Shown piece by piece: positions 2,850 through 56,500 of a stretch of DNA of 64,000 nucleotides (positions within the stretch are counted from its first letter, which is position 1; every line of letters begins with the position of its first letter). This DNA is from a virus: IMG/VR virus record IMGVR_UViG_3300025137_000017, positions 32,001 to 96,000 of that record; one strand, given 5' to 3'. The translations under genes and the position numbers were made by a program. Below the pieces are notes generated by a model that did not search any database, was not told where the DNA came from, and saw only the letters and a program-made list of their open reading frames with translations.

Positions 2850-3460
2850 TAGCCTTTTACACGCTCCTCAATAAAATTAAAGATATCAGTATCGAACTTA
2901 CCAAAGAACTGTGTAAATAATTTTTGCTTTTCTTCTACAGGCTGCTCGCTTGCCATTACTTGTCTAAAATCTGTTGCACTCATACCACCTTCGTTAACTG
3001 GCATTGTTACAAAATAAACACGATTTTCATCTTCGGTTTGTAAGTTTGCTCTGTCATCTGGTAACTCTTGCAGTACTCCACCACTGTTTAATCTACCTGC
3101 ATCTTTCTCACTAAACGCAAGAACTGTAGCAGTATTTGACTTAGTTCTACCAACAAGTGTAACATCTGGCCTGTATGGCTGTGTGTTTACAAACCTGTCT
3201 GTAGGTATATTAAACATTTGACTGGCTATTTTTGCCTTTTCTTCAAATGTAAATGGATCTGTGCTAAAGTCACCCTTGGAATGCATTGCTTGTTGTTTTG
3301 CTCCAAAAGTAGTAGCGATAAATACATTAGAAGCACCAAATTGTGATCCTAGTTGCTTATATAAAGCATAGTGTCCTTTATGCATAGGCTGAAAACGCCC
3401 TCCATAGAACACAGTTACCTGATCTGTTGTGGCTTCATTTAATAAATCTGTATAACGCAT
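2849..3460 (-). CDS. Cytidyltransferase-like nucleotidyltransferase (HIGH superfamily)
   Basis: GGRFQPMHKGH (HxGH) and C-terminal MSATDFR motifs. Likely start is ATG 3460, after AGGAG at 3468-3472, rather than 3487. Confidence 0.8.
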   Translation of the reverse strand: MRYTDLLNEATTDQVTVFYGGRFQPMHKGHYALYKQLGSQFGASNVFIATTFGAKQQAMHSKGDFSTDPFTFEEKAKIASQMFNIPTDRFVNTQPYRPDVTLVGRTKSNTATVLAFSEKDAGRLNSGGVLQELPDDRANLQTEDENRVYFVTMPVNEGGMSATDFRQVMASEQPVEEKQKLFTQFFGKFDTDIFNFIEERVKG

Positions 3461-3477
3461 TATAAATCTCCTACTGG

Positions 3478-3485
3478 TATTTAGC
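3478..3485 (-). promoter_or_regulatory. T4-late-like promoter GCTAAATA for the leftward nucleotidyltransferase/baseplate operon
   Basis: TAAATA core ~18 nt upstream of ATG 3460; the same motif recurs before most structural genes. Confidence 0.6.
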
Positions 3486-3499
3486 ATGGAAAAAACAGG

Positions 3500-3528
3500 T
3501 TGACATGATACCTAATAGGTGTTAGTAT
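3500..3528 (+). promoter_or_regulatory. Sigma70-like promoter for the gp55-gp47-gp46 operon
   Basis: TTGACA-17 nt-TAGTAT with TGn extension. Confidence 0.7.
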
Positions 3529-3550
3529 TAGTAATAACAAAGGAATAATT

Positions 3551-4420
3551 ATGGCTAGAAACCACTATCTATCAAACAAAGAATTACTAAAAGAGATACA
3601 TCGTTCAAAACTATCCTATAGTTGGGTAAGTGATGAGAAATATGAATGGAACGATCTAATTATTAATAGTCTGGATGAGATTAATCCAGAAACAATTGCT
3701 GAAGCAAAGCAGACAAGAGCTGCTAGGATGCAAAAAGAGGCACACGAGGCACAAGTAAAATTGTGGGAAAAAGGATTATTGGAAAGAAAAACAAAGCCCA
3801 GAGCTATTGACTTTGCAGTTGATCCTGATACTATTCCAGAAACAGATATTGTATTTCGTGTTATGACATTTGAGCATGTTCCAGAAGAGCCTGGAAGAAA
3901 GAGCAATCCTAAACAAGAAGCAGATTACCACACACGTTGTAACTTCCCTCCCTTTAAACATTTTGCACTAAAAGGTAAAAAATGGAGTGAGGTAGCTAGA
4001 AGTCACTGGGAGGGTGGTAAGGATAATGGACACTTTAGTATTACAAGTGGTAATACTACTGAAAGACTTGCTAAGATGTATATCATGCTATGTCATAGAT
4101 ATAGTATGCGAGGTAACTGGCGTGGATATACATATGTAGATGAAATGCGAGGACAAGCCTTGTTACAGTTAGCACAGATAGGTCTACAGTTTAATGAAGC
4201 AAAGAGCCAAAATCCATTTGCATATTATACTGCCGCCATTAATAATAGTTTCACAAGAGTATTGAACCTAGAAAAACGTAGTCAGAATATTAGAGATGAT
4301 ATTCTTGAGGAAGAGGGATTGAATCCAAGTTTTACTAGAACATTCAATGCAGAATGGGAACAGAAGATGGCCAATATTGCAGAAGCCAATCCACAAATAG
4401 AAGAAGAGACAAAGGAATAA
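3551..4420 (+). CDS. Late-transcription sigma factor, T4 gp55-like
   Basis: HYLSNKELL, NWRGYTYVDEM and KSQNPFAYYT motifs; directly precedes gp47/gp46 as in T4-like phages. Confidence 0.8.
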   Translation: MARNHYLSNKELLKEIHRSKLSYSWVSDEKYEWNDLIINSLDEINPETIAEAKQTRAARMQKEAHEAQVKLWEKGLLERKTKPRAIDFAVDPDTIPETDIVFRVMTFEHVPEEPGRKSNPKQEADYHTRCNFPPFKHFALKGKKWSEVARSHWEGGKDNGHFSITSGNTTERLAKMYIMLCHRYSMRGNWRGYTYVDEMRGQALLQLAQIGLQFNEAKSQNPFAYYTAAINNSFTRVLNLEKRSQNIRDDILEEEGLNPSFTRTFNAEWEQKMANIAEANPQIEEETKE

Positions 4421-29300: not shown

Positions 29301-32300
29301 CTAGTGTAACTTCAAGTAGTGACTTTGTCGGTGACTTAACAGGTAATGTAACTGGTAACGTAACTGGTGACTTAACTGGTGATGTGACTGGTGATGTGAC
29401 TGGTGATGTAACTGGTGATCTAACTGGTAATGCCGATACAGCAACAGCTCTAGCAACAGGTAGAACAATTGCAATTACTGGTGATGCAACATACACTTCA
29501 GGAGCATTTGATGGTTCTGCTGGCGTAACTGGTGCAATGACTTTATCAGCAAGTGGTGTAACTGCAAGTACATATGGTTCAGGAACAACAATTCCTGCTA
29601 TCACAGTAGATGCAAAAGGTCGCATTACAGCCGCAACTTCAGAAACATTTGCAGTAACACAAGCAATTGCTGGTGACTCTGGAAGTGATAATGTTGGACT
29701 AGGTAGTGATACCCTAACATTTGAAGGTGGAACTGGTGTTACAACAACAGTATCTGATAACAAGGCAAGTTTTGCTATTGGACAAGCAGTCGCAACTACA
29801 GACAGCGTAACATTTGGTGACGTAACAACAACTAACGGTATTGCCATTGGCGGTGCTCTAGGAGTAACTGGTGAATCAACATTAGCAAGTGCTATTATTA
29901 GTGATTTAACAGCAACTCGTGTTGTATTTGCTGGTACAGATGGTGCAATTGAAGATAGTGCAAACCTAACATTTAGTGGTTCTCTACTAGATATTACTGG
30001 TGATGCTACTGCTTCAGGAACTATCACAGGTGGAACACTAACTGACGGAGCGGCAAGCTTCACAAGTGGTGCTCTAACAGGTGCAACCACTGGTGCATTT
30101 AGTAGTAACGTAACAATCGGCGGAACAGCAGGTATTACAGGACTAACAACAATGTCAACAGCGGCAGTAACAAGTACAAGTACATTTACTGGTGCAATTA
30201 CAGCCAATGGTGGATTAGTTGGAGACGTAACTGGTGATATTACTGGTACAGTTTCAGACATTAGTAATCATAACTTAAACGGACTAGGCGATGTAACAAT
30301 TTCTAGTGCGGCAAACGGTCAAGTTCTACAATGGAACGGATCTGCTTGGGTTAATGCTACTAAGTTCTTTGCACTAACATCTTTAACAGATGTTGGCGAT
30401 AGTTCACTAACAGGTAAAGGCGATTATCTACTACAAGTTAAAGCAGATGCAAGTGGATTTGAATTAGTTGATCCATCAACTGTATCATTTAGTTCGCAAA
30501 ATCGTGTCACAATAAACGGTGATGGTGTTGCAACTACATTTAACTTAGGATTTACTCCAAACTCAGCAACAATGGTGTTTGTGGGCGGTGTTATCCAGGA
30601 TCCAAGTACACACTATACTATCGATACAGATAATGATCAGATTACTTTAGGCTCAGTAATGCCAACAGGTACATCAGCGGTTATTATGAGTACTGAAAGT
30701 AGTGCGGTACCATATGTTCCAACAAATGGTGTTGGTACAACTGAAATCCAGGACGATGCAATCACATCAGCAAAAATTGCCGATGGTAATGTTACTAGTG
30801 CTAAATTGGATACCAACATTGCTATTGCAGGTAACTTAACTGTTGCCGGTGATGCAACAATTAGTGGTAACCTAACATTTGGTGATGCGGCAACTGACAC
30901 AGTTAGTTTTGGAGCCGATATCGCAAGTGATATTCTTCCAAATGCAAACAACACACTTGATTTAGGTGCTAGTGGTATAGCGTTTGCTGAAGTACACGCT
31001 ACTAACTTTTACGGAATCCATAACGGTAACGTAACAGGTAATGTAACTGGTGATATTACAGGTGATGTAACTGGTAACGTAACTTCTGCAGGAACAAGTG
31101 ATTTCTCAGGAACTGTAGACTTTACAGGCGCAACTATTACTGGACTATCAACTACACTAACAGGTAACTTAACTGGTAACGTAACAGGTAATGTAACTGG
31201 TGATTTAACTGGTGATGTTACAGGTGATGTAACTGGTAACGTAACTGGTGATTTAACTGGTGCTTCAGCTGGTGCACATAACGGTACAATTGGTGCAACA
31301 ACTCCAACAACTATCGTTGGTACAACAATCGGTGGTACAGTTATTACAGCAAGTACAAACTTTGCAGGTGATATTACTGGTGATGTAACTGGTAACGTAA
31401 CTGGTAATGTAACTGGTAACGTAACAGGTAACTTAACTGGCGATGTAACTGGTGATGTAACTGGTGACTTGACAGGTAATAGTGCTGGTACACATACTGG
31501 TGCTTCTGTTGGTGCTCACACTGGTGCAGTAGACGGCATCTTGGGTGGTAACACTCCGGCGGCAGCTACAGTAACAACAATGACAGCAAGTAGTGACGTA
31601 ATTGTACAAGGTAACTTTACAGTTTCAGGAACTACAACCACAGTTAACTCAAATGATGTTAACATTGCAGACTCAACACTAACACTTAATAGTGATGAAG
31701 CTGGAACTCCTTCACAGGATGCGGGTATTGTTATTGAACGTGGTACAGCGGCAAATGTTAGTTTCTTATGGGACGAAACAGGTGACCAATGGACTACAGG
31801 TACAGAAGCAATTAAATCTGGACACCTATTACCAGCAGCAGATGATACTTATGACCTAGGTGCAGACGGAAACGTTTGGAGAGACTTATATCTAAGTGGA
31901 AGTACAATCAAACTTGGTGGTGCAACTCTTAGTGCTAGTGGATCTAACCTAAGTATGGGATCTGGATCCTTTGATCTAAGTAACAGTACAACTGCCAACT
32001 TAGCTGAACATACAGACTACAAGTATTATACTGATACAAGAGTTAGAACACACATCGAAGGTGCAGACCTGGCTATGGGTGCTAACAATATCACAACTAC
32101 TGGTAAGATGTTATACAGTAACGTTTATAGTGCAGAAGGCGATCTTCCAAGTGCAAGTACATATCACGGTATGTTTGCACACGTTCATGGAACAGGATTG
32201 GCTTACTATGCTCACGGTGGAAACTGGGTCAAACTAGCAAAGCATGATGATAGTATTAAGAGCAATGCTAATGATACTGCTTCTGGACAAATTACATTTA

Positions 32301-52920: not shown

Positions 52921-53589
52921 ATGCACGGATTAAACTATTCATTGAATGGTGATATACGAAGATTGAACATTGATTCCAGTAGCAGATGTAATCTATCATG
53001 TCCAGGATGTGGCAGGACAAGAGACATTGCTAATGGAACTAATGGTTCAATTGAAGACATGCCAATGGAATACTTCAAAGCACTGGTACGTCCAGAAAAT
53101 AGAATTACCCAACTAACATATAATTTTGCACTAAGTGATCCTATCTACAGTGGTGTAGTTCTAGATCAACTAGCACATATAAACACATTAGACAATAGAC
53201 CTATTGTCAATTTTAGTACCAATGCGAGTGGTCGTAAACCCAAATGGTGGATTAAATTTGCAGGTCTATTGCGAGAACGAGATAAAGTAGAGTTTGCAAT
53301 TGACGGACTGGAAGATACTAATCACTTATACAGAGTTAATTCAAAATGGGATAGTATTATGTTGGGTGCTAAAACCCTAAGAAAACATTGGAATCCACCG
53401 CCTGGTGGGGGAATGATGTGGCGTTATGTTATATTTGAACATAACTATCATCAAGTAGCTGAAGCAAAAAAACTAGCAATTGAACTAGGCTTTAATAGAT
53501 TTAGGCCTGTTGTAGGGGATAAAAGAACACCCCAACATATGCGATTAAAAAGTAGAACTTGGGAAGAGATAGAACATGATCTATCCTAA
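52921..53589 (+). CDS. Radical SAM protein (core domain only)
   Basis: CNLSCPGC (CxxxCxxC), STNAS, FAIDGLEDTNHLYR and IFEHNYHQV motifs. Confidence 0.88.
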   Translation: MHGLNYSLNGDIRRLNIDSSSRCNLSCPGCGRTRDIANGTNGSIEDMPMEYFKALVRPENRITQLTYNFALSDPIYSGVVLDQLAHINTLDNRPIVNFSTNASGRKPKWWIKFAGLLRERDKVEFAIDGLEDTNHLYRVNSKWDSIMLGAKTLRKHWNPPPGGGMMWRYVIFEHNYHQVAEAKKLAIELGFNRFRPVVGDKRTPQHMRLKSRTWEEIEHDLS

Positions 53590-53896
53590 ATGCAAACATA
53601 AAGAAAAACAAGTACCTGCTGTTAGATATGATGGCTATGTGGTTCCTTGTTGTCACTTCGGAAACTGGAATGATATTGAAGTATTCAGAGAACGCATGGG
53701 AGATCTTGTGGAAACAATGCATATAACTAATGGTACTCTAGATGAAATTAATAATAGTCTAGCTTGGAAGTTTATTGAAGATAGTTTTGATAATGAACCA
53801 TTTGCTAGATGTGTTCAACATTGTAGTGATCCAGAAAACTACAAAAAAACTAAAAGTAATGTAGGAGCAGACTTTAAAGTAATAAGTTTAGAATAA
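53576..53896 (+). CDS. Stand-alone SPASM/twitch-type Fe-S domain protein
   Basis: PKC...VRYDGYVVPCC...CVQHC cysteine pattern. Confidence 0.7.
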   Translation: MIYPKCKHKEKQVPAVRYDGYVVPCCHFGNWNDIEVFRERMGDLVETMHITNGTLDEINNSLAWKFIEDSFDNEPFARCVQHCSDPENYKKTKSNVGADFKVISLE

Positions 53897-54144
53897 TGAT
53901 GGTTTGGGAGACATTTATAATATGCTTGGTATTCTTATTAGTTATCATGGCGGCCATGAGTATAGGCCTCCTGAGAGGCCGACGTGTAAAAGGGAGTTGC
54001 GGTGGTGCTACCGGCGTTTGCTCTGTATGTGGCGAAGACAATGCAAAAGAAAAGATAGTTATCAAAGGTGAAGAACATTTAAAACGTCCTGAGCCAACAC
54101 GTTACGGAACGTGGGAAAGTAAAGGCACAGATGTCGACTTTTGA
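53896..54144 (+). CDS. nqrM: NqrM-like (DUF539) small membrane protein, Na+-NQR maturation family
   Basis: N-terminal TM helix ending MAAMSIG, followed by RRVKGSCGG...CSVC. Confidence 0.7.
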   Translation: MMVWETFIICLVFLLVIMAAMSIGLLRGRRVKGSCGGATGVCSVCGEDNAKEKIVIKGEEHLKRPEPTRYGTWESKGTDVDF

Positions 54145-54151
54145 TAAATAT

Positions 54152-54246
54152 GTAGGTAACGCTTAGGACCCGCTGTTACAGGCGTCAAGGTTACTGTTTA
54201 TCCTTAAGGACATGGTTCGCTACTCTTGTCTTTTAAAAAACAGACT
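54152..54246 (+). ncRNA. Candidate small structured late RNA (family not recognised)
   Basis: Non-coding; bracketed by GATAAATA at 54143-54150 and 54254-54261; several stems plus pseudoknot complementarities. Confidence 0.5.
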
Positions 54247-54266
54247 TTTAACAGATAAATATTAAT

Positions 54267-54950
54267 ATGAATAAATTATTTGCATTTGGTTGTAGTATGA
54301 CAAGAGGAGATGCATTAGATGATATATGGGATTTCGAACTCAAGCAGACAGATCCAGATGCAGGTCCAAGTAAATATTCCTGGCCACAAATCCTAGCAAA
54401 CAATATGAATTTAGATTGTGTTAACTTAGGAGAAAGTGGTGCTAGTAATAAACAGATTTGGTATAGATTGGTAACTACACATATGACAGAAGTCGATATA
54501 GCATTTGTACAATGGACATCAGTAAATAGATGGTGTGTACTAAATGATGACAAAATACAACAGATTAATTCATTTCGTACAAGCAAACAATCCCTAGCAT
54601 ATTATGGGAATCTACACACTGATATTGATTCAGACTATGATGCAAATTTAAGAATGAGTCATGCAGATTATCATGCTAAAAGTATTGGGGTTAAGTTATA
54701 TCATCTAACATTTGATAAATCAAGTCTATCCGATAACTTACCTTTTAATACAACAGAAACACTTAATAGTGATTTACATGAACTTCAAAGAGATATCCAT
54801 AAAGAATATACAACAGATACACAGGATTTTAATACTGGACACAGCATGACAAGAGGATCTGCCAATGATAAAACTGATAAAAAATTGGGACATCCTTGTG
54901 CTATCACACATAAATTACATGCATACAATCTATACGAGGAGATTTCCTAA
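54267..54950 (+). CDS. SGNH/GDSL-hydrolase-like protein
   Basis: FGCSMT.G (block I), SWP...NLGESGASN (block II) and C-terminal GHP. Confidence 0.6.
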   Translation: MNKLFAFGCSMTRGDALDDIWDFELKQTDPDAGPSKYSWPQILANNMNLDCVNLGESGASNKQIWYRLVTTHMTEVDIAFVQWTSVNRWCVLNDDKIQQINSFRTSKQSLAYYGNLHTDIDSDYDANLRMSHADYHAKSIGVKLYHLTFDKSSLSDNLPFNTTETLNSDLHELQRDIHKEYTTDTQDFNTGHSMTRGSANDKTDKKLGHPCAITHKLHAYNLYEEIS

Positions 54951-56500
54951 TGGCAGTAGATACCAAACTAACTAAAACTCCCTATAAGAGAGAAGAATAC
55001 ACAAGTGATCAACTGGTTGAACTTGCCAGGTGTGCGGCTGACCCCAAACACTTTATGCTAAAGTATTGTTATATTCAGCATCCTGTTAAAGGAAGAATGT
55101 TATTTACATTATATGATTATCAAGTTGGACTGGTAGATGTATATCACAATAATAGATACAGTATCAGTATGTTAGCACGACAAACAGGTAAGTCAACCTG
55201 TGCGGCAGGATATCTGTTATGGTATGCTATGTTTAATCCTGATCAAACTATTCTAATCGCGGCTCACAAATACAGTGGTGCCCAAGAGATTATGCAACGT
55301 ATACGATTTGCATACGAACTATTACCTGACTTTATTAGAGCTGGTGTAACTGCTTATAACAAAGGTAGTTTAGAGTTTGATAATGGAAGTCGTATTATTG
55401 CACAAGCAACAACAGACAATACAGGACGTGGTTTGTCTATATCACTAGTATACTTAGACGAGTTTGCATTTGTTAGACCAACTATAGCCCGTGAGTTCTG
55501 GACCTCACTATCGCCTACACTAGCAACAGGTGGTAAATGTATCATTACAAGCACTCCTAATCAGGACGATGATCAATTTGCACAAATATGGAATGAAGCC
55601 CTAAAAAATATTGATGAATTTGGTAATGAAACTACAACAGGCAGGAATGGATTCGCACACTTTTTAGCTAATTGGGAAGTACATCCTGATAGAGATCAAA
55701 AATGGGCAGAATTAGAAGAAGCTAAAATTGGTGAAGAACGATTTAGACGTGAACACAACTGTGAATTTATTGCATTTGATGAAACACTTGTAGACAGTAT
55801 AAGACTAGCAATGATGGAAGGTAAAAACCCATATGCTAAACAAGGACAAGTACGTTGGTATAAGCCTGTAGTTAAAGAAGCAATATACATGATTGGATTA
55901 GATCCTAGTTTAGGTACTGGTGGAGATAATGCGGCTATACAGGTATATGAACTTCCGGGTATGAAACAAGTAGCAGAATGGCAACACAATAAAACACCCG
56001 TTCAACAACAGATTCGTATACTACAACAGATAGGCAATTACCTAGCAGAAGAAGGTGTTAATAAAGATAATGTATACTATAGCATAGAAAATAATACTCT
56101 TGGCGAAGCTGCTCTTGTAATGCTGGAAGAGATTGGTGAAGAGCATTTAGTAGGTACAATGCTAACAGAACCTAAACGTAGAGGAATGGGTAGAATTCGT
56201 AAAGGTTTTACTACAACACACAAAAGTAAAATTGCCGCCTGTGCCAAACTAAAGCATTGGATAGAAAGCGATAGAGTGGAGATTGCTAGTAAGAATCTAC
56301 TTCGTGAGTTAAAGACGTTTGTAGCCAGAGGACAAAGTTTCTCAGCAAAAGAAGGTGAATCTGATGATCTAGTAATGGCACTTATACTTGTTGTTAGAAT
56401 GGCACAAGAAATTACAAAATATGATGACAATGCCTTTGATGCATTAACAGAAATGAATGAAGATGATTACGAAGAACCTATGCCAATGAGCTTTTTATAA
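54950..56500 (+). CDS. Terminase large subunit, T4 gp17-like
   Basis: LYDYQ, ARQTGKST, YLDEFAF, ITSTPN, FRREH, GLDPS and DDLVMA motifs. Confidence 0.95.
   Translation: MAVDTKLTKTPYKREEYTSDQLVELARCAADPKHFMLKYCYIQHPVKGRMLFTLYDYQVGLVDVYHNNRYSISMLARQTGKSTCAAGYLLWYAMFNPDQTILIAAHKYSGAQEIMQRIRFAYELLPDFIRAGVTAYNKGSLEFDNGSRIIAQATTDNTGRGLSISLVYLDEFAFVRPTIAREFWTSLSPTLATGGKCIITSTPNQDDDQFAQIWNEALKNIDEFGNETTTGRNGFAHFLANWEVHPDRDQKWAELEEAKIGEERFRREHNCEFIAFDETLVDSIRLAMMEGKNPYAKQGQVRWYKPVVKEAIYMIGLDPSLGTGGDNAAIQVYELPGMKQVAEWQHNKTPVQQQIRILQQIGNYLAEEGVNKDNVYYSIENNTLGEAALVMLEEIGEEHLVGTMLTEPKRRGMGRIRKGFTTTHKSKIAACAKLKHWIESDRVEIASKNLLRELKTFVARGQSFSAKEGESDDLVMALILVVRMAQEITKYDDNAFDALTEMNEDDYEEPMPMSFL

Follow-up and report, generated by a model that had tools for sequence, protein, structure and literature searches.

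This locus raises the question of what a short, RNA-like element does close to the terminase gene of a virus. The window, that is the whole stretch of 64,000 nucleotides (nt) analysed, covers positions 32,001 to 96,000 of IMG/VR record IMGVR_UViG_3300025137_000017, a 135.6-kb record of an uncultured marine virus estimated to be 37% complete. The element, which is single-copy in the record, is housed in a 122-nt spacer between an NqrM-like open reading frame (ORF) and an SGNH-like gene, one gene upstream of TerL. A sequence-only reading had taken it for a separate, late-promoter-driven RNA of about 95 nt with a possible double pseudoknot, and had thought of a ribozyme, a riboswitch or a packaging RNA like the pRNA of phage phi29. 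It missed what appears to be the main feature of the element, namely conserved boxes antisense to 23S ribosomal RNA (rRNA). On balance we lean towards an RNA that is made late and whose displayed boxes pair with the host 23S rRNA around helices 67, 69 and 70; as judged from the sequences compared, it probably acts on rRNA and not in DNA packaging.

Architecture and conservation of the element

The features of the element are listed below. Complementarity was scored against the 23S rRNA of Escherichia coli (rrlH, from an annotated record), which may not be that of the host.

54156-54249, + strand: predicted RNA, about 94 nt long; alternatively the 3' end of the upstream message; bounds placed by a promoter-like motif and a T-run
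54155-54195, + strand: helix H1 (tentative), GGTAAC (54155-60) with GTTACT (54190-95), closing a 5' domain that displays box 1
54162-54170, + strand: box 1, CTTAGGACC, exact complement of 23S 1921-1929
54171-54184, + strand: hairpin P2, CGCTG-TTA-CAG(G)CG, directly after box 1
54179-54187, + strand: box 3, CAGGCGTCA, exact complement of 23S 1827-1835
54194-54243, + strand: outer stem, CTGTTT (54194-99) with AAACAG (54238-43), enclosing P3; compensatory changes
54206-54233, + strand: hairpin P3, AAGGACA/TGTCTTT with apical pairs GG/CT; matched by the family model; compensatory changes
54216-54223, + strand: box 2, TTCGCTAC, in the P3 loop, exact complement of 23S 1930-1937, abutting the target of box 1
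54246-54249, + strand: T-run TTTT after the outer stem, a weak intrinsic-terminator-like end

In this arrangement the 5' domain would be closed by GGUAAC/GUUACU and would display CUUAGGACC, a small hairpin and CAGGCGUCA, and the 3' domain would consist of the outer stem CUGUUU/AAACAG around P3, the loop of which would display UUCGCUAC, followed by UUUU. The strings on which the sequence-only reading was built, i.e. GATAAATA at 54143-54150 and at 54254-54261, all the pairing strings and TTTT at 54246-49, are indeed present. The + strand was regarded as the RNA strand because of the orientation of the upstream gene, the T-run 3' of P3 and an invariant G-U pair, which would be A-C on the other strand. 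There is no local hairpin P1 in 54143-54161; the long-range helix H1 stands there instead.

Near relatives were obtained from IMG/VR (four loci by a search with the SGNH-like protein and two by a DNA pattern), from six metagenome contigs and from three DNA runs; single loci are given below by L numbers. The results showed that the tract is almost unchanged in all of them, while the genes around it vary greatly. The core (54156-54249) is 98-100% identical where the TerL DNA is about 90% identical, and 87.5-88% identical where the TerL DNA is 82.5-84% identical. Among the substitutions listed for the three DNA runs none falls in 54154-54248, and many fall in the SGNH-like gene. The DUF1674 tail of the NqrM-like protein is deleted in L001, L003 and L004, and both the whole NqrM-like gene and the SGNH-like gene are absent from L143, L147 and L006, where the element persists; in L006 the whole accessory island is gone and the element lies directly between a head-protein gene and TerL. 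Conservation of the window form exceeds that of its coding flanks.

In P3 and the outer stem, compensatory changes maintain the pairing. P3 reads AAAGACA/TGTCTTT in L002 and AAGGACA/TGTTCTT in L143 and, in more diverged copies, AATAACA/TGTTATT in L006, ATGTAA/TTACAT in L065 and TATATGTA/TATATATA in L112. The outer stem, in which compensatory changes were seen in L006/L147, L065 and L112, reads GCCGTT/AACGGC in L006, GGCCGCT/AGCGGCC in L065 and TGCCGTT/AACGGCA in L112. The view of the element as a compact RNA was borne out in that it is RNA-like, conserved and structured. Among the helices that had been claimed, P3 and the outer stem (TGTTT/AAACA) are those that compensatory changes uphold; for GTAAC/GTTAC, the core of H1, a single-sided change that preserves pairing in L147 (GGTAAC/GTTGCC) and a helix at the same position in L065 (AACCT/AGGTT) are suggestive. 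P2 is a perfect CGCTG/CAGCG in L006.

The cross-pairings of the proposed double pseudoknot did not hold up. CTTAGGA/TCCTTAAG is absent from L006 and is broken in L002-type relatives by a G-to-A change at 54208, a change that improves a P3 pair; GTAG/CTAC is lost in L143 (AACAG) and in L006, and the double pseudoknot is not conserved. The palindrome TCCTTAAGGA, to which dimer formation had been ascribed, reads TCCTTAAAGA in L002 and TCCCAAATAA in L006.

The window itself is a deletion variant: 8 nt after 54177, a tandem copy of ACAGGCGA, are present in every relative fetched and in the three DNA runs. We also observed that the loss, at 54177/54178, merges the 3' strand of P2 with a strand able to pair with ACGCTT.

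The wider RNA family and its complementarity to 23S rRNA

Box 1 (CTTAGGACC) and the P3 loop (GGTTCGCTACT) never vary, and together they turned out to mark a large family of phage RNAs. In IMG/VR, 55 stretches carry the pattern TTAGGACC-N25-55-GGTTCGCTACT and at least 120 carry TAGGACCG-N35-65-AATTCGCTAC; the two patterns combined gave 94 distinct cores. The only pattern match in the genomes of 185,579 prokaryote species, one genome each (L150), is coding-like and has neither hairpins nor a model match, and the family therefore looks phage-only. The covariance-model scan of Rfam that the sequence-only reading had proposed matched no family: Rfam 15 gave no match at the gathering score in the window or in 19 loci, and at E <= 10 gave only HOTAIR_3 (13.6 bits) for the window and only mir-7558 (13.2 bits) for a common-form copy (L017), both by chance. 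Literature searches with the box strings, which did not cover supplements, returned only unrelated 8-mer matches and neither 10-mer among the matches listed, and those on RNA motifs linked to nrdA returned no paper describing this RNA by title or abstract.

In its common form the RNA comprises, from 5' to 3', a variable hairpin P1, the box, hairpin P2, a short linker, a G+C-rich P3 with an invariant loop, and a T-run. Both TTAGGACCG (box 1) and GGTTCGCTAC (box 2) are invariant in 28 common-form sequences (alignment A1). When the 28 sequences were analysed by MAFFT and RNAalifold, P3 alone was recovered, P1 and P2 being misaligned; therefore a seed covariance model was built from 6 sequences and the rest were realigned by it. 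This model found 27 copies at E <= 0.01 in the 28 loci, with L062 as the sole miss. In the model-fitted alignment (A6, 25 distinct rows) 95.6% of the cells pair and 17 of the 22 pairs change on both sides, and the covariation score is 0.602, compared with 0.183 for shuffles (none of 500 reached the observed value) and 0.10-0.18 when the partners were slid; these figures are to be read with the fact that all helices of A6 were fitted to the model, which favours pairing. The P3 apex (G-U, G-C, 7-nt loop and 3' bulge) is invariant in A6.

Gene 3' ends are where most family members are located. In 33 of the 50 common-form stretches, 25-43 nt separate the element from a preceding ORF that ends in CxxC-D/E-G, the large subunit of ribonucleotide reductase (RNR), an identity confirmed by Pfam for two of the 33 ORFs and read from the C-terminal sequence for the others. 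The remaining stretches follow other genes, including those of a tail lysozyme and of unnamed proteins. On one viral contig (L009) the common-form copy is convergent with an ORF (3174-4403, - strand) whose translation reads as a DnaK/Hsp70-like protein.

The window shares with the common form the box yTTAGGACC (54162-70) with a hairpin (54171-84) directly after it, a terminator hairpin with loop GGTTCGCTACT, apical G-U and G-C pairs and a 3' bulge, the T-run (54246-49), and the same complementarity to 23S 1912-1937. It differs in that it has no local P1 5' of the box, H1 closing around box and P2, and no significant full-length model match; in an insert of 25-35 nt, or longer linker, with the third box CAGGCGTCA; in the extra outer stem around P3; in its own ATAAATA; and in a site near the terminase gene and not after nrdA. 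A third conserved string between box and P3, CAGGCGTC, is common to 13 of the 94 distinct cores. The long form with the third box occurs in the window type, in L006, in L173/L176/L212, which have another context, and in six distinct copies of the L157 group, and the closing-helix topology is the rule in a large subgroup, type B, with ACACC/GGTGT around box and P2. On these comparisons the window appears to be a rearranged long-form variant of the superfamily, with partial membership, and not an example of the common form; it would show a second architecture of the RNA.

The bases complementary to 23S rRNA are exactly the invariant bases of the family. Positions 1912-1937 are the one 23S region covered by all 94 cores; the region 238-247 is near behind (0.98 of the cores), via a 7-nt match of the P3 loop. 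In type-B copies (L156, L162, L164 and others) the loop and its 3' flank (CGCTACTGG/G) complement 238-247 over up to 10 nt, which is probably incidental, because the extra bases belong to a covarying stem. Some members carry longer matches along the rRNA, of 20 nt in L019 (1911-1930), 17 nt in L112 and 15 nt in L029, and in the region of box 3 there are matches of 11 nt in L173 (1825-1835), at 1828-1836 in L157 and at 1831-1838 in L236. Common-form P2 copies the hairpin of helix 69 in antisense; its stem has drifted, its loop UAGUU is kept against 1912-1916; in the window, GTTAC at 54175-79, within P2, is complementary to 1910-1914. With the third box, the 5' domain of the window is colinear with the antisense of 1827-1929, helix 68 being skipped, and the complement of 1930-1937 sits permuted in the terminator loop. 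By itself the window is modest evidence for rRNA complementarity; the weight comes from the family.

Possible roles of the element

In the reading that we favour, the element would end the upstream late transcript and, in the window lineage, would also be made alone: the ATAAATA promoter at 54144-50 would give an RNA about 94 nt long. The boxes would be likely to find their target in 23S rRNA that is still nascent or immature, or in the loop of helix 69 where free 50S subunits expose it, and the pairing might disturb the maturation of 50S or the joining of subunits, or tag the rRNA for cleavage. A more specific version can be put forward only tentatively, as a possibility short of being probable: a dedicated anti-ribosomal RNA of large aquatic phages, the boxes of which would clamp three 23S strands (1827-1835, 1910-1929 and 1930-1937) that meet at the base of helices 68 and 69, so that helix 69 fails to form or dock. 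Such an RNA would give the phage an RNA-only means of stopping new 50S assembly or subunit joining, and the window would hold a promoter-driven, free-standing version of it within the late head and packaging module. According to PMC2602781, helix 69 (1906-1924) is conserved universally, makes bridge B2a and has contacts to tRNAs and to the recycling factor; the tRNAs are those in the A and P sites. Should the pairing prove real, phages would have in it a protein-free tool for acting on ribosome assembly or subunit joining, one open to direct tests in laboratory bacteria because its target is universally conserved. Literature searches brought up no natural trans-acting RNA directed at the core of helix 69 in the large-subunit rRNA of bacteria; those on helix 69, phage and small RNA gave unrelated papers only, and those on antisense to 23S gave none.

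Several results weigh against pairing with rRNA. In the mature 50S subunit 1921-1937 is paired or buried and position 1915 is modified, so that the target would be immature rRNA or the helix 69 loop only. The fold of the tract (minimum free energy -22.2 kcal/mol, z = -0.38) is no stabler than that of shuffles; the proposed structure has -10.1 kcal/mol, compared with a minimum of -19.5; and the minimum-energy fold partly pairs box 1, with an unpaired probability of 0.42-0.51 (0.42-0.69 for the boxes of the window). The P3 loop of the window also has a 7-nt complement at 23S 241-247, some abutting 8+8 match to 23S was shown by 32 of 5000 dinucleotide shuffles of the window, and by our own arithmetic about 1.3 chance 9-mers are expected between tract and 23S. 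The window copy, 8 nt shorter than every relative, may be impaired. Family membership is also less than clear-cut when judged by covariance models, quite apart from the fitting of the A6 helices: model R2, the second one, built from 27 sequences, scored the window at 15.9 bits in a whole-model alignment (54167-54239) that covers little beyond P3, which is not significant (E 0.17 over 103 kb and 0.22 in the 135.6-kb record). This match is the only one at E <= 1 in the record; R1 gave a local match to P3 (54206-54233) of 7.9 bits, and R2 gave local P3 matches of 14.4-17.7 bits in the relatives L001, L002, L006, L143 and L147. Finally, an own promoter is not general, as L006 and L065 have no ATAAATA before the element, which there directly follows a stop codon as in the common form.

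The rival that comes closest is a conserved, structured RNA in which the boxes are there for a protein partner or for a tertiary fold of the RNA itself, the antisense likeness reflecting origin only, for example from a captured piece of ribosomal DNA. We consider this unlikely, while taking it seriously. The boxes never vary, so that pairing with rRNA would be indistinguishable from recognition by a protein; the P3 apex is as invariant as that of a protein-binding hairpin; the loop GGUUC could pair with GGACC of box 1; and the rRNA target is, as mentioned, buried in mature ribosomes. The members, however, extend the complementarity differently and always along the rRNA, over 20 nt in L019 and 11 nt in L173 and in shifted positions in L157 and L236, which is unexpected for a relic or a fixed protein site. 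Moreover, their stems drift with covariation whereas the exposed bases are fixed. A reading of the P3 loop as the T-arm of a tRNA was rejected, as position 58 is C where A is the rule, and so were analogies with the EBS1 and EBS2 exon-binding sites of group II introns and with group I guide sequences, no intron core or intron protein being nearby.

The other explanations fit worse than pairing with rRNA. That the tract is an ordinary spacer, consisting of a weak intrinsic terminator and a late promoter for the next gene, is improbable. The insignificant fold z-score and the ending in a stem and T-run would suit such a spacer, and a plain GC hairpin with T-run and ATAAATA does stand before TerL in element-free relatives (L068, L070, L084, L121, L132, L134 and L141), from which it follows that the element also occupies a terminator position. 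A terminator, however, has no need of an invariant loop of 8-11 nt or of an upstream 9-mer, which are shared with 94 distinct cores in unrelated contexts, nor would it explain why conservation is higher in the core than in the genes beside it.

A self-cleaving ribozyme, or a riboswitch for the downstream gene, as the sequence-only reading had suggested, would agree with the compactness of the RNA and its invariant unpaired bases, and we regard it as very unlikely. Neither the window nor the common-form copy scanned gave a match to a known ribozyme or riboswitch in Rfam, even at E <= 10; the downstream genes vary (SGNH-like, TerL, unnamed ORFs or no ORF found); the downstream ORFs scanned (L019 and L062) have no Pfam match, and nrdB was identified downstream of no copy; and the conserved hairpin is itself a predicted terminator, most members standing at gene 3' ends.

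A packaging RNA that works with the terminase like phi29 pRNA is the tempting misreading of this locus, and the distribution of the element leaves it hardly any credit. In three sublineages (the window type, L065 and L112-L117) the element does precede TerL, either immediately or with one gene between. Our survey took in 80 loci, each reaching 3.5 kb to either side of a related TerL gene (67-95% identity); such a search near terminase genes had been suggested together with a look for covariation. Compensatory changes were found, as described above, but the element was present at only 9 of the 80 loci (L063, L064, L065 and L112-L117), 2 of which were found by the covariance model. It lies near TerL here and, in the common form, mostly after the RNR gene (33 of the 50 stretches). 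The element and phi29 pRNA are both small phage RNAs, and the element lies here near packaging genes; it has no likeness to pRNA in sequence or in Rfam, no conserved pairing between loops of different molecules (the dimerisation palindrome is not conserved) and no general link to a terminase. As far as the loci compared allow it to be judged, terminase adjacency seems to be a lineage habit with no functional link visible.

That the - strand is the functional one, as an rRNA-sense mimic or decoy of helices 69-70, is scarcely tenable, although that strand carries sense 23S words. In 58 of 62 loci the element is oriented like the upstream gene, whose stop precedes the box by no more than 43 nt; the T-run comes after the hairpin when the + strand is read; and on the - strand the invariant G-U pair, like several more G-U pairs, would turn into an A-C mismatch. 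The - strand fold has z = -1.28, which is not significant.

With pairing to rRNA as the preferred reading, the element can be set beside known regulatory RNAs. CpxQ and SroC are small RNAs derived from 3' untranslated regions that share the terminator of the mRNA. Like them, the element follows a stop codon, ends in the predicted terminator of the operon and has conserved, unpaired, seed-like bases; unlike them, it is encoded by a phage and would have its own promoter in some sublineages and rRNA, not mRNA, as its presumed target. CopA/CopT and RNA I/RNA II are antisense RNAs that present loops. Common-form P2 resembles these in being an antisense copy of its target hairpin, helix 69, with the loop kept (UAGUU against 1912-1916), and the single-stranded stretch beside it could extend the pairing. 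The element differs from them in that it would act in trans on the rRNA of the host, to which it is not linked, and in that half of the complementarity is permuted into the loop of a second hairpin.

Promoter-like signals and neighbouring genes

The signals and genes around the element are as follows.

54144-54150, + strand: ATAAATA, T4-type late-promoter-like core, overlapping the TGA stop of the upstream ORF
54255-54261, + strand: second ATAAATA, 5 nt before the ATG (54267) of the SGNH-like gene
53896-54144, + strand: NqrM-like ORF of 82 amino acids (aa) with a DUF1674-like tail, upstream neighbour of the spacer
54267-54950, + strand: gene for a protein of 227 aa with an SGNH-like N-terminus, downstream neighbour, overlapping the start of TerL
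54950-56500, + strand: TerL (Pfam Terminase_6N, 1e-20)

ATAAATA is a true intergenic signal: 11 of its 15 copies on the + strand lie outside called ORFs, which leave 10% of the window free, and it stands 12-123 nt before 11 genes or features. It thus has the position expected of a T4-type late promoter, a TATAAATA-like core upstream of genes on the coding strand. A fuller late-promoter-like word, yTAAATAC, was also noted; on the + strand TAAATAC lies outside called ORFs in 10 of 11 cases, and yTAAATAC precedes many + strand gene starts, e.g. 15171, 20981, 21704, 32811, 45356 and 56540.

The distance from the first ATAAATA to AGGACC, 21 nt, is unchanged in L001-L004, in L143, where 4 neighbouring bases differ, and in L147. 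Each of the six L157-group copies ends in a plain P3 terminator, and in all of them AGGACC is preceded by GATAAATA at a distance of 24-25 nt. Since ATAAATA stands at a fixed distance before the element in two sublineages, a stand-alone transcript of about 94 nt, predicted to run from the ATAAATA at 54144-50 to 54246-49, is plausible; by T4 spacing it would presumably start at 54156, the first base of GTAAC. To this extent the separate late RNA of the sequence-only reading stands, while the 8-mer GATAAATA on which it relied is not itself enriched (5 matches compared with 4.56 expected). These comparisons point to some copies being free-standing genes with their own late promoter and not only 3' untranslated regions.

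At the 3' end, a scan with a consensus terminator did not flag the window; P3 has only 2 G-C pairs there, and the outer stem and TTTT are present. Stronger T-runs (TTTTTT) occur in L006 and L065. Before TerL itself, ATAAATA-N5-ATG was found in L006 and L068, with N4 in L070, and GTAAATA, which contains TAAATA and not ATAAATA, was found at that spacing before the ATG in L065 and L084. A Shine-Dalgarno sequence is absent before the ATG of the SGNH-like gene, with ATAAATA exactly 5 nt off; if T4-type spacing is assumed, the transcript would start at the A of this ATG, giving a putative leaderless late mRNA.

The arrangement recalls the PeSL-type elements that Arbiol and colleagues are said to have described in 2010 as mobile regulatory cassettes of T4-type phages. 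Here too, a unit of stem-loop and promoter bounds small accessory genes that are gained and lost between near relatives; the signals of the window differ in being late-promoter-like, and its stem-loop bears invariant boxes antisense to rRNA that also occur far outside the phage group.

By blastn of 53500-55500 against 50,697 phage records, DNA identity of 65-70% to jumbo phages of the Rak2 and PA5oct types was found in TerL only, and the rest of this region had no match. ARAGORN found neither tRNA nor tmRNA genes in the window. The 82-aa NqrM-like ORF has a transmembrane start, a CxxC-rich middle and a DUF1674-like C-terminal tail (Pfam 6.9e-5). Upstream of it, two separate ORFs in 52921-53896 overlap by 14 nt: one, of 222 aa, has a radical-SAM match that is weak and under the cut-off, and the other, of 106 aa, has a SPASM domain; this pair is absent from L006.

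The source record has, in locus L152 (its positions 111341-115867), an RNR large-subunit gene of its own, encoding 762 aa, without the RNA element downstream, the next gene following after 15 nt. That gene, an ORF of 375 aa, is from its position alone a putative RNR small subunit, and the translation of a small ORF after the pair reads as putatively glutaredoxin-like.

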